Source: Escherichia coli
Lineage (GTDB): Bacteria > Pseudomonadota > Gammaproteobacteria > Enterobacterales > Enterobacteriaceae
Length of the DNA stretch: 64,000 bases
NCBI RefSeq assembly: GCF_022846255.1
Contig: NZ_AP025682.1
Direction: 5' to 3' (one strand)
This document shows positions 3,760 through 11,968 of this stretch, one piece after another; positions within the stretch are counted from its first letter, which is position 1, and each line of letters starts with the position of its first letter. The position numbers were made by a program, and so were the translations under genes. The notes beneath the pieces are model-generated. The model was not told the origin of the DNA and searched no databases. It was given only the letters and a program-made list of their open reading frames with translations.

Positions 3760-3794
3760 TTATTTTCTTTACTTAAAACAAGGAAGCAGTGAAC

Positions 3795-4436
3795 GTGGCA
3801 AAGAATTACTATGACATCACCCTCGCTCTGGCCGGTATTTGTCAGTCGGCACGCCTGGTGCAACAACTCGCTCACCAGGGGCATTGTGATGCCGATGCGC
3901 TACACGTCTCACTCAACAGTATTATTGATATGAACCCCAGCTCGACGCTGGCGGTTTTTGGCGGTAGCGAAGCCAACCTGCGCGTCGGGCTGGAAACCTT
4001 GCTCGGCGTGCTCAATGCCAGCAGTCGCCAGGGCTTAAACGCCGAATTAACCCGCTACACACTCAGTCTGATGGTGCTTGAGCGCAAACTCTCCTCAGCG
4101 AAAGGTGCGCTCGACACTCTGGGCAACAGGATCAACGGCCTGCAACGCCAGCTCGAACACTTCGATTTACAGTCCGAAACGCTGATGAGCGCGATGGCTG
4201 CCATCTATGTTGATGTTATCAGCCCGCTTGGCCCGCGCATTCAGGTCACTGGTTCCCCTGCTGTACTGCAAAGCCCACAGGTGCAGGCGAAAGTTCGCGC
4301 AACCCTGCTGGCAGGCATTCGCGCCGCCGTGCTCTGGCACCAGGTCGGCGGCGGTCGTCTGCAACTGATGTTTTCTCGTAATCGCCTGACCACTCAGGCA
4401 AAACAAATTCTTGCTCATTTAACCCCGGAGTTGTGA
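3795..4436 (+). CDS. hflD: high-frequency-lysogenization protein HflD
   Basis: ORF 3789-4436; probable GTG start at 3795 giving [14 protein letters not shown]... Confidence 0.88.
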
Positions 4437-5810
<1,374 letters not shown>

Positions 5811-5901
5811 GCCTCAAATCAGTGCCGGATGGCGATGCTGTCCGGCCTGCTTATTAAGATTATCCACTTTTTGTTTTTTCACTTTACCTCCCCTTCCCGC
5901 T

Positions 5902-5918
5902 GGTTTATTTAATGTTTA
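5902..5918 (+). promoter_or_regulatory. PhoP box direct repeat (GGTTTA-N5-TGTTTA) upstream of phoP
   Basis: Sequence ggtttatttaatgttta about 60 bp upstream of the phoP ATG; matches the (T/G)GTTTA-N5-(T/G)GTTTA PhoP-box consensus. Confidence 0.7.
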
Positions 5919-5978
5919 CCCCCATAACCACATAATCGCGTTACACTATTTTAATAATTAAGACAGGGAGAAATAAAA

Positions 5979-6650
5979 ATGCGCGTACTGGTTGTTGAAG
6001 ACAATGCGTTGTTACGTCACCATCTTAAAGTTCAGATTCAGGATGCTGGTCATCAGGTCGATGACGCAGAAGATGCCAAAGAAGCCGATTATTATCTCAA
6101 TGAACATTTACCGGATATTGCGATTGTCGATCTCGGTTTGCCTGACGAGGACGGTCTGTCACTGATTCGCCGCTGGCGTAGCAATGATGTTTCACTGCCG
6201 ATTCTGGTATTAACCGCCCGTGAAAGCTGGCAGGACAAAGTCGAAGTATTAAGTGCTGGCGCTGATGATTACGTGACTAAACCGTTTCATATTGAAGAGG
6301 TGATGGCGCGAATGCAGGCATTAATGCGGCGTAATAGCGGTCTGGCTTCACAGGTCATTTCGCTACCACCGTTTCAGGTTGATCTCTCCCGCCGTGAATT
6401 ATCTATTAATGACGAAGTGATTAAACTGACCGCGTTCGAATACACCATTATGGAAACGTTGATACGCAATAATGGCAAAGTGGTCAGCAAAGATTCGTTA
6501 ATGCTACAACTCTATCCGGATGCGGAGCTGCGGGAAAGCCATACCATTGATGTACTGATGGGACGTCTGCGCAAAAAAATTCAGGCACAATATCCGCAAG
6601 AAGTGATTACCACCGTTCGCGGCCAGGGCTATCTGTTCGAATTGCGCTGA
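5979..6650 (+). CDS. phoP: Mg2+-responsive response regulator PhoP
   Basis: 223 aa OmpR-family response regulator, PhoP-like. Confidence 0.95.
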
Positions 6651-8110
6651 TGAAAAAATTACTGCGTCTTTTTTTCCCGCTCTCGCTGCGGGTACGTTTT
6701 CTATTGGCAACGGCAGCGGTTGTACTGGTGCTTTCGCTTGCCTACGGAATGGTCGCGCTGATCGGTTATAGCGTCAGTTTCGATAAAACTACGTTTCGGC
6801 TGTTACGTGGCGAGAGCAATCTGTTCTATACCCTTGCGAAGTGGGAAAACAACAAGTTGCATGTCGAGTTACCCGAAAATATCGACAAGCAAAGCCCCAC
6901 AATGACGCTAATTTATGATGAGAACGGGCAGCTTTTATGGGCGCAACGTGACGTGCCCTGGCTGATGAAGATGATCCAGCCTGACTGGCTGAAATCGAAT
7001 GGTTTTCATGAAATTGAAGCGGATGTTAACGATACCAGCCTCTTGCTGAGTGGAGATCATTCGATACAGCAACAGTTGCAGGAAGTGCGGGAAGATGATG
7101 ACGACGCAGAGATGACCCACTCGGTGGCGGTAAACGTCTATCCGGCAACATCGCGGATGCCAAAGTTAACCATTGTGGTGGTGGATACCATTCCGGTGGA
7201 GCTAAAAAGTTCCTATATGGTCTGGAGCTGGTTTATCTATGTGCTCTCAGCCAATCTGCTGTTAGTGATCCCGCTGCTGTGGGTCGCCGCCTGGTGGAGT
7301 TTACGCCCCATCGAAGCCCTGGCAAAAGAAGTCCGCGAACTGGAAGAACATAACCGCGAATTGCTCAATCCAGCCACAACGCGAGAACTGACCAGTCTGG
7401 TACGAAACCTGAACCGACTGTTAAAAAGTGAACGCGAACGTTACGACAAATATCGTACGACGCTCACCGACCTGACCCATAGTCTGAAAACGCCACTGGC
7501 GGTGCTGCAAAGTACGCTGCGTTCTCTGCGTAGTGAGAAGATGAGCGTCAGTGATGCTGAGCCGGTAATGCTGGAGCAAATCAGCCGCATTTCACAGCAA
7601 ATTGGCTACTACCTGCATCGTGCCAGTATGCGCGGCGGGACATTGCTTAGCCGCGAGCTGCATCCGGTCGCCCCACTGTTGGACAATCTCACCTCGGCGC
7701 TGAACAAAGTGTATCAACGCAAAGGGGTCAATATCTCTCTCGATATTTCGCCAGAGATCAGCTTTGTTGGTGAGCAGAACGATTTTGTCGAGGTGATGGG
7801 TAATGTGCTGGATAATGCCTGTAAATATTGCCTCGAATTTGTCGAAATTTCTGCAAGGCAAACCGACGAGCATCTCTATATTGTGGTCGAGGATGATGGC
7901 CCCGGTATTCCATTAAGCAAGCGAGAGGTCATTTTCGACCGTGGTCAACGGGTTGATACTTTACGCCCTGGGCAAGGTGTGGGGCTGGCGGTAGCCCGCG
8001 AAATCACCGAGCAATATGAGGGTAAAATCGTCGCCGGAGAGAGCATGCTGGGCGGTGCGCGGATGGAAGTGATTTTTGGTCGCCAGCATTCTGCACCGAA
8101 AGATGAATAA
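6650..8110 (+). CDS. phoQ: sensor histidine kinase PhoQ
   Basis: 486 aa ORF; start overlaps the phoP stop (TGATG) by 1 nt. Confidence 0.95.
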
Positions 8111-9355: not shown

Positions 9356-10582
9356 TTACTTCCGTTGCGCCGTCAACTCGGCAATACGGACGATCACCTG
9401 CACCGCTTTTTCCATACCTTCCAGAGTCACAAACTCATGCTTACCATGATAGTTGTAACCGCCAGTGAACAGGTTCGGGCACGGTAATCCCATAAACGAC
9501 AACTGCGCGCCGTCGGTACCGCCGCGGATCGGTTTCAGTTCCGGTTCAATATCGCAGTCACGCATCGCCTGCTGGGCGATATCGAGAATATGCGGATGCT
9601 CAACCACTTTCTCGCGCATATTGTAGTAACTGTCTTCAATCACCAGTTCAATGTAGCAATCAGGATGTAACCCTTTGCCCACTTTTTTGGCGATCTCCAT
9701 CATTTTACGTTTACGCGCTTCAAACTGTTTACGGTCGAAATCACGGATGATGTAGTGCATATCGGCCCGTTCAACGGTGCCTTTCATGCTCGCCAGGTGA
9801 TAGAAACCTTCATAGCCTTCTGTCATTTCCGGGCTTTCATCCGCCGGAACTTCCGCATGAATACGTGCCGCCAGCGACAGCGCATTTACCATCACTCCTT
9901 TCGCCGTGCCCGGGTGAACATTGTTACCGACAATTTTGATATTGACCGACGCGGCGTTGAAGTTTTCAAACTCCAGTTCGCCGACGCCACCACCATCAAC
10001 GGTGTATGCCCAGCGGGCATCGAAGGCGTCAACATCAAAATGCTTCGCCCCTTTGCCCACTTCTTCATCCGGGGTAAAGGCGACGCGAATATCACCATGC
10101 GGAATGTTTTTTTGTTGCAATACCGCCAGCGCGGTCATGATTTCTGCAATACCTGCTTTGTCATCGGCACCTAACAAGGTTTTACCATCGGTGGTAATCA
10201 GCGTCTGACCCAGTAGCTGATGCAGCACCGGGAACATAACCGGTGATAAAACTTCATCGCCGATACCCAGCGCAATATCGCCACCGCGATAGTTTTCAAC
10301 AATTTGCGGATTCACATTTTTGCCGCTGCAATCCGGTGAGGTATCCACATGAGAAATAAAGCCAATCGCCGGGATATCGCCAGGGACGTTAGCCGGTAAC
10401 GTCGCCATCAAAGTGCCCTTCTCACTTAAGGTCACATTGATAAGCCCCATCTCTTCGAGCTGCTCTTTCAGCAGATGCAATAACTTCCATTGGCCTTCCG
10501 TGCTGGGAACCTGTCTCACCCCTGCCTTTGATTGGGTATCCAGAGACACGTAGTTCAAAAATCGCTCAAGTAGTTTATCCAT
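9356..10582 (-). CDS. pepT: peptidase T (tripeptide aminopeptidase)
   Basis: ORF 9356-10624; start set at the Met giving [17 protein letters not shown]..., 408 aa. Confidence 0.92.
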
Positions 10583-10831
10583 GTAGTCACCCTCACTTTT
10601 TGTGACAACATTATTAAGAAGCAAGAAAAGACAAATATTGCGTCAGGTCACTTTTACCCCTGCAAGCGGGAATATTTATCAGCATTACCTTAATGAATAT
10701 AAAGCTAAGCCAGTAATTCACAACAAAGATTGGCGATTCAAGCGGTTTGCCGTAGAATTACCGCCCTCATTAAGAGTCACCAAGGTGGTTAACCACAAAC
10801 CCCGCATCGGTAAGCCATCCGTTGCGTTTAC

Positions 10832-11968
10832 ATGGGACAGAGTAAAAAATTGAATAAACAACCGAGTTCGCTTTCACCGCTGGTGCAATTGGCGGGAATT
10901 CGCAAATGCTTTGATGGTAAAGAGGTCATTCCCCAGCTGGATCTGACTATCAACAATGGCGAGTTCCTCACGCTGCTTGGCCCTTCTGGCTGCGGTAAAA
11001 CAACCGTTCTTCGCCTGATTGCAGGTCTGGAAACTGTTGATTCCGGACGCATCATGCTGGATAACGAGGACATCACCCACGTTCCGGCGGAAAACCGCTA
11101 TGTGAACACTGTTTTCCAAAGCTACGCACTTTTCCCCCACATGACCGTGTTCGAAAATGTGGCCTTTGGGTTGCGCATGCAAAAAACCCCCGCTGCTGAA
11201 ATTACGCCCCGCGTGATGGAAGCCCTGCGGATGGTGCAGCTGGAAACCTTCGCTCAACGCAAACCGCATCAGCTCTCTGGTGGTCAACAGCAACGCGTCG
11301 CCATTGCTCGCGCGGTGGTTAACAAGCCTCGTCTGTTGTTGCTGGATGAGTCGCTCTCAGCGCTGGATTACAAACTGCGCAAGCAAATGCAGAACGAGCT
11401 GAAAGCATTACAGCGTAAGCTTGGCATTACATTCGTGTTCGTAACTCACGACCAGGAAGAAGCACTCACCATGTCGGACAGGATTGTGGTGATGCGCGAT
11501 GGTCGCATTGAGCAAGACGGCACGCCGCGTGAAATCTACGAAGAGCCGAAAAACCTGTTTGTTGCCGGGTTTATTGGCGAGATCAATATGTTTAACGCCA
11601 CTGTCATCGAACGTCTCGACGAGCAGCGCGTACGCGCCAACGTTGAAGGCCGCGAATGTAATATCTACGTTAACTTCGCCGTTGAACCGGGGCAAAAACT
11701 GCATGTTCTGCTGCGCCCGGAAGACTTACGTGTTGAAGAGATTAACGACGACAACCACGCCGAAGGGCTGATTGGTTACGTTCGCGAGCGTAACTACAAA
11801 GGCATGACGCTGGAGTCGGTTGTTGAGCTGGAAAATGGCAAGATGGTGATGGTCAGCGAATTCTTCAATGAAGACGATCCTGACTTTGACCACTCTCTCG
11901 ACCAAAAAATGGCCATTAATTGGGTAGAAAGCTGGGAGGTCGTACTGGCTGATGAAGAACACAAGTAA
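10832..11968 (+). CDS. potA: spermidine/putrescine ABC transporter ATPase
   Basis: 378 aa, Walker [13 protein letters not shown] signature LSGGQQQR. Confidence 0.95.

Follow-up and report, generated by a model that had tools for sequence, protein, structure and literature searches.

The direct repeat GGTTTA-TTTAA-TGTTTA at positions 5902-5918 of the window (the whole 64,000-nt stretch of Escherichia coli DNA that was analysed) is, with high probability, the PhoP box of P1, the PhoP-activated promoter of the phoPQ operon. A sequence-only reading had placed the repeat at these positions, about 60 bp from the phoP ATG. Both statements were correct: the sequence is present letter for letter on the plus strand, and 60 nt separate the end of the box from the ATG (5979-5981). 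The P1 PhoP box is already known and is textbook biology, and the element described here is the same as that of E. coli K-12. It is the switch by which a major two-component system of envelope stress and virulence regulates itself, and its value here lies in correct annotation. This analysis established the sequence of the box, its uniqueness in statistical terms, its placement with respect to the -10 and the ATG, and the pattern of its conservation; the P1 start site, PhoP-P binding and the dependence on Mg2+ and PhoP are taken from the literature. With box, 12-nt linker, -10 and leader all as in K-12, the strain keeps the canonical phoPQ circuit.

The phoPQ locus and the PhoP box

The gene order hflD-purB-phoP-phoQ was recovered with all four genes on the plus strand and a full-length NCBIfam equivalog match for each. 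The features of the locus are given below; positions relative to P1 follow from the published 36-nt leader (see the next section).

3789-4436, plus strand: hflD (NCBIfam equivalog)
4440-5810, plus strand: purB (NCBIfam equivalog)
5824-5846, plus strand: predicted terminator-like, GC-rich hairpin with a 10-pair stem (7 G-C), bounding the phoPQ regulatory region on its upstream side
5902-5907, plus strand: PhoP box half-site 1, GGTTTA (-41 to -36 relative to P1)
5908-5912, plus strand: 5-nt spacer TTTAA joining the half-sites, read from the sequence
5913-5918, plus strand: PhoP box half-site 2, TGTTTA (-30 to -25 relative to P1)
5919-5930, plus strand: 12-nt linker CCCCCATAACCA from box to -10, read from the sequence
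5931-5936, plus strand: -10 hexamer CATAAT of P1 (-12 to -7, from the 36-nt leader)
5943, plus strand: P1 transcription start, an A, placed from the published 36-nt leader
5943-5978, plus strand: phoP 5' leader, 36 nt (sequence and literature)
5965-5970, plus strand: Shine-Dalgarno sequence AGGGAG inside the phoP leader (sequence)
5979-6650, plus strand: phoP, the response regulator that binds the box, 223 aa (NCBIfam NF008078, 480 bits)
6650-8110, plus strand: phoQ, the sensor kinase, co-transcribed with phoP, 486 aa (NCBIfam NF008077, 957 bits)

The cognate PhoP and PhoQ are both intact and full-length. PhoP equals its K-12 counterpart at 222 of 223 residues (99%), the sole change being the conservative substitution I44L. 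Downstream of phoQ comes roxA, as annotated in a syntenic E. coli genome. The hairpin at 5824-5846 begins 14 nt past the purB stop (5810) and is followed by a weak T-tract; judged from its sequence, it is probably the purB terminator. Enterobacter and Citrobacter relatives have a comparable hairpin ahead of the box.

Both hexamers of the box match the PhoP consensus with 0 mismatches and form a direct repeat 5 nt apart. The box lies on the phoP strand, with its hexamers directed at the -10 and at phoP. An exact match to (T/G)GTTTA-N5-(T/G)GTTTA occurs once on both strands of the 64-kb window, and this single match is the 5902-5918 box; 0.02 matches were expected from 100 dinucleotide-preserving shuffles of the window, two of which gave a match. 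When up to two mismatches were allowed, the window held 22 PhoP-box-like sites compared with 12.1 expected, and the only perfect one was again that at 5902-5918.

The count of 22 relaxed sites (two mismatches allowed) was attained in just 1 of the 100 shuffles. One such site, TGTTTATTCAATTTTTT (two mismatches), lies at 10844-10860 on the minus strand, approximately 220 nt upstream of a minus-strand ORF (9356-10624).

Geometry of the P1 promoter

P1 is the proximal phoPQ promoter, and in PMC3536696, citing Kato 1999, it is described as PhoP-activated with a 36-nt leader. Applied to the window sequence, this published length places the +1 of P1 at A5943 (5979 - 36), which is 7 nt past CATAAT and is compatible with a PhoP-dependent start. 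The box then spans -41 to -25 and covers the -35 position of P1, as the sequence-only reading had proposed on general knowledge of this promoter. That reading had also named a mapped start inconsistent with the site as the observation that would speak against it; the published leader length gives A5943, with which the box position agrees.

The distance from the box to the -10 is exactly 12 nt, within the 11-13 nt range of the promoter class known as architecture I. At the -35 position, TTTAAT (the spacer plus T5913) matches TTGACA at 3 of 6 bases, which makes it a weak -35. In a scan for consensus sigma70 promoters P1 went uncalled, with no -35/-10 pair found there, and the sole call was a weak candidate inside purB. 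Both the missed P1 and the 3/6 match at -35 are what one would predict for a promoter at which an activator takes over from the -35 contact. PMC3750022 describes P2 of E. coli phoPQ as constitutive and P1 as PhoP-P-responsive, and adds that P1 alone stays responsive to PhoP-P. The leader region of phoP is also a published target of the small RNAs MicA and GcvB.

From these elements, positive autoregulation would proceed as follows. Low Mg2+ and similar signals would lead PhoQ to phosphorylate PhoP, and two PhoP-P DNA-binding domains would then bind the two hexamers head-to-tail, the hexamer starts being 11 bp apart, or one helical turn. Lying at -41 to -25, the box would stand in for the poor -35, such that PhoP-P recruits sigma70 RNA polymerase to CATAAT (class II activation). 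Transcription from A5943 would yield more PhoP and PhoQ, while the constitutive upstream P2 would provide the basal phoPQ level. The tandem-dimer geometry and the polymerase contacts of PhoP at the box are inferred by analogy with related systems. The autoregulation of phoPQ through the box that had been claimed is supported by the geometry, by conservation among orthologues and by the published data on P1.

Comparison with known PhoP-regulated promoters

The closest counterpart is the P1 PhoP box of E. coli K-12 (Kato, Tanabe and Utsumi 1999, as cited in PMC3536696 and PMC5775216), which is the same element: box, -10, leader and ATG are identical, and the flanking purB, phoP and phoQ are the same. 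Six substitutions upstream of the box and the PhoP I44L change are the only differences noted. Architecture I has been defined as a single direct box 12 nt from the -10 and over the -35, for which class II activation is predicted (PMC3335776). Its members include phoP, mgtA, slyB, yrbL and pmrD, and moving or inverting the phoP box led to loss of activity (PMC3335776). The Salmonella enterica phoP promoter likewise has one direct box over the -35, 12 nt before CATAAT (PMC3335776); in S. enterica arizonae the order is GGTTTAttaacTGTTTA, then 12 nt, then CATAAT. However, the spacer and linker sequences of Salmonella differ from those of the window, and its leader is 2 nt longer (62 vs. 60 nt from box to ATG). 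The Salmonella box is required for growth in low Mg2+.

In Shigella flexneri, a host of another lineage in the E. coli/Shigella group, the 19-mer tGGTTTAtttaaTGTTTAc that holds the phoP box is identical to the window, with no difference at the sequence level, and the identical 17-mer is given as the phoP site (PMC5775216). The S. flexneri phoPQ promoter fragment is shifted by phospho-PhoP, a result for the whole fragment rather than a footprint of the box, and a reporter was induced by low Mg2+ (PMC5775216). Yersinia pestis phoP is also positively autoregulated through a PhoP box, but there the box lies upstream of an intervening gene, in the y1795 promoter, whereas that of the window lies directly upstream of phoP (PMC2650801).

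At the level of structure, the PDB search found only the receiver domain of PhoP solved (2pkx, 2pl1) and no full-length PhoP-DNA structure. The closest solved full-length relatives are PmrA/BasR bound to DNA (4s04, 4s05), BasR (8jo2) and KdpE (4kfc, 4kny), with E values of about 1e-37. Several of the PmrA/BasR and KdpE entries are presumably DNA-bound tandem dimers on direct repeats and would serve to model PhoP on its hexamers. PmrA/BasR and KdpE are nevertheless different regulators, with recognition sequences that differ from that of PhoP.

Conservation across Enterobacterales

Species-representative genomes were scanned with a pattern that lies within the coding sequence of phoP, which leaves the upstream DNA unselected. 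The scan returned 120 loci, almost all of them phoP orthologues; in 104, the upstream DNA extended for 200 nt or more. A box with up to two mismatches was found 40-70 nt before the ATG in 60 of these 104 loci (32 perfect), compared with 1.0 in shuffles. By contrast, each of four other distance bins held a box in at most 15 loci, and the reverse orientation was seen in 3. Anchoring on a conserved leader motif, and thus independently of the box, gave a similar picture, as 37 of 49 loci carried the box in a fixed frame.

When 58 distinct orthologous promoters were aligned on the box, half-site 1 held 1.42 bits per column and half-site 2 held 1.73, values that are inflated because the set was picked by its match to the box. 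In the same alignment the spacer held 0.29 bits, the linker 0.36 and the 25 nt upstream of the box 0.19; the half-sites are thus conserved and the spacer is variable among orthologous promoters. At its constant distance of 12 nt from the box, the -10 hexamer, which played no part in the selection, reached 1.23 bits. A -10-like hexamer stands at exactly this distance in nearly all box-bearing orthologues, such that the length of the linker is kept but its sequence is not. As a by-product, these data amount to a phylogenetic footprint of the phoP promoter, in quantitative form, for about 100 species of Enterobacterales.

The genera that bear the box are Escherichia, Salmonella, Citrobacter, Enterobacter, Kluyvera, Kosakonia and Phytobacter, together with Atlantibacter, Buttiauxella, Cedecea, Siccibacter, Yokenella and Shimwellia. 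A variant, CGTTAA-N5-TGTTTA, is present in Pantoea, Tatumella, Erwinia and Mixta.

Other positions of the best box were also observed in several Yersiniaceae and Morganellaceae. In Rahnella (L018, L006, L056, L098, L105), Chimaeribacter (L064) and Providencia (L090 and others) it lies approximately 90-150 nt upstream of phoP. The Yersinia loci have no good box near phoP, and none at 40-70 nt, which fits the published relocation to the y1795 promoter.

The antisense RNA AsphoP

The K-12 annotation includes an antisense RNA, AsphoP (b4843), which maps to the minus strand of the window from 6261 down to 5918, with its annotated 3' end abutting the box. Northern bands of about 300-320 nt have been reported for this RNA vs. 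the 344 nt annotated. Its promoter falls at about 6262-6300, and the -10 there reads CGTAAT in the window, not CATAAT, an A-to-G change at -11. The variant base is 6272, where the plus strand has a T-to-C change that is synonymous in phoP. Judging from this substitution and from what is known of sigma70 -10 elements, AsphoP is probably weak or absent in the window strain. The authors who described AsphoP regard its promoter as specific to K-12, in agreement with the variant -10 seen here.

The box region was also considered as an intrinsic terminator for AsphoP and was rejected, as the antisense strand is no more stable there than shuffled sequences (z = +0.73). An Rfam search of positions 5500-6700, with E values up to 1, returned no match.

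Alternative readings of the repeat

Chance is the simplest alternative, in which the repeat would be a feature of AT-rich intergenic DNA with no regulatory role. The region is indeed AT-rich and relaxed matches are common, with 22 sites in the window; however, an exact match is expected just 0.02 times per window, many genera keep the distance and orientation of the box while the adjoining bases vary, and both PhoP binding and regulation have been published. We regard chance as so improbable that it scarcely needs to be entertained. It is also extremely unlikely that the box is chiefly the target of another OmpR/PhoB-family regulator that reads direct repeats spaced by 11 bp. PmrA/BasR and KdpE do have the same fold and bind direct repeats, but both hexamers are perfect matches to the PhoP consensus, in Shigella the site is catalogued as a PhoP target and the promoter fragment that carries it is shifted by PhoP-P, and the box stands upstream of phoP itself in an architecture that is experimentally PhoP-dependent. 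A reading in which the conserved bases are core sigma70 elements rather than a PhoP site (the -35 or UP element of P1, or the -10 of P2) draws on TTTAAT at 5908-5913, which lies in the box and resembles a -10 at 5 of 6 bases; some overlap of the box with P2 is possible. Yet two hexamers 11 bp apart are conserved and not one, and TTTAAT falls in the spacer, the part with the least conservation (0.29 bits). The motif is moreover the PhoP consensus and not TTGACA, and P1 alone is PhoP-P responsive, which leaves this reading very unlikely.

A further proposal concerns an extra role rather than an alternative to the PhoP box of P1, namely that PhoP-P bound there blocks transcription crossing the box, either read-through from P2/P3 or AsphoP. 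The K-12 annotation ends AsphoP at the equivalent of 5918, the last base of the box, where the antisense strand has no intrinsic terminator structure. However, the 3' end of AsphoP comes from read coverage and its coincidence with the box may be imprecise, AsphoP is probably not made here given the A-to-G change at -11, and occlusion of P2 is unsupported. Such a role therefore seems unlikely. It would in any case leave intact the assignment of the repeat as the PhoP box of P1.

Variation within E. coli

Of 5,426 complete E. coli genomes, 5,424 contain the purB-phoP intergenic segment, together with the adjoining ends of the two genes, without interruption. Among 5,427 E. coli records, 4,047 match the window over the 83 nt that begin shortly ahead of the box and run to the ATG (1,380 differ), whereas the 85 nt upstream of this segment are identical in just 93 of 5,427. 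Relative to K-12 MG1655, the sequence from box to ATG is the same base for base, and the 168-nt intergenic region has six substitutions, all of them upstream of the box and purB-proximal.

Three variants of the linker were seen among individual strains. E. coli MB165 (L123), a sampled one-mismatch variant, has a C-to-A change at window position 5928, which converts CATAACCA to CATAAACA with the box unchanged. E. coli SCPM-O-B-8794 (L023, a species representative) lacks one C of the linker, which is 11 nt long there, and its box is again unchanged. E. coli P276M (L122, NZ_CP044293.1) carries a 9-bp deletion, CCCCATAAC, equivalent to 5920-5928, which brings the box to within 3 nt of CATAAT. If it is not an assembly error, this deletion should abolish the activation of P1.

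Putative prophage integration at the P1 core in sister genera

Outside the window, the comparison of orthologous loci brought to light a putative prophage integration at the phoP promoter core, which is more interesting than the box itself. The box is absent in 12 of the leader-anchored loci. Nine of them align with box-bearing relatives only from CATAAT onward and have an ORF other than purB upstream. These nine (L100, L083, L104, L002, L041, L048, L051, L077 and L034) are C. werkmanii, C. braakii, C. youngae ATCC 29220 and two Citrobacter sp., together with Enterobacter mori, E. genomosp. O, E. cloacae DSM 26481 and Lelliottia nimipressuralis; in E. cloacae, homology resumes at CTGTAAT instead of CATAAT. 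The upstream ORF in three of the nine loci is a complete tyrosine integrase of 429 aa (Pfam Arm-DNA-bind_2 and Phage_integrase), approximately 50% identical to Rac-type IntR; 74 nt separate the end of this ORF from the phoP ATG. A further four loci have truncated copies or remnants of an integrase, and the remaining two have too little upstream DNA. The same integrase-side (attR) junction was found in 38 IMG/VR proviruses (L124-L161).

The opposite (attL) junction was present in seven IMG/VR contigs (L162-L168), where the purB stop is followed by a perfect PhoP box, a 12-nt linker and CATAATCAGCGTTA, the -10 in this core reading CATAAC in one of the seven. Past the core these contigs continue into divergent phage DNA with TGCCCCCAA-type repeats, which are also found beside int. 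Because both junction types meet there, the recombination core appears to be CATAATCAGCGTTA, the equivalent of the P1 -10 through +1; the attL and attR junctions are each known from separate contigs. As the junctions are built, the purB side keeps box, linker, -10 and +1, a complete P1 that faces the prophage, and the phoPQ side keeps just the -10 and +1 behind phage DNA that lacks the box and matches a -35 at 3-4 of 6 positions. The first same-strand ORF is a SRAP peptidase in three of the five attL contigs examined, lying approximately 320 nt downstream in two of them and approximately 1.6 kb in the third. A predicted hybrid attP (P arm, core, P' arm) was sought in viral contigs and gave no match. 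The E. coli core, as read in the window, is set apart by a 1-nt deletion (CATAATC-GCGTTA); of 5,426 E. coli genomes, 5,424 have an empty site.

We tentatively suggest that prophages with a Rac-type integrase may use CATAATCAGCGTTA, the P1 core, as their attachment site, leaving phoPQ uncoupled and their cargo PhoP-driven; on the junction sequences we consider this possible, although somewhat doubtful. If functional, such lysogeny would remove phoPQ autoregulation and place prophage cargo under PhoP control. The lysogens would then be natural strains in which the positive feedback of phoPQ is physically uncoupled, and with which the purpose of that feedback could be tested. No paper linking prophage, phoP, purB and integration site was found in the accessible literature, which is weak evidence of novelty. 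The box arrangement is in any event not indispensable everywhere, as indicated by the 9-bp deletion of E. coli P276M and by the phoPQ operons of prophage-bearing relatives, which are without a box.

The other three box-less loci have different insertions, among them an ORF between purB and phoP in Pluralibacter. In Pluralibacter L115 this ORF is of approximately 310 aa and resembles a lipid A acyltransferase, and Pseudocitrobacter L019 has a 510-aa, EAL-domain-like ORF in the same interval. In Kluyvera genomosp. 3 (L067), an autotransporter-like ORF lies upstream of phoP on the opposite strand; all three assignments were made by reading the sequences. The canonical box is absent or degenerate in L115 and L017 (Pluralibacter), L019 and L030 (Pseudocitrobacter) and L067 (Kluyvera).
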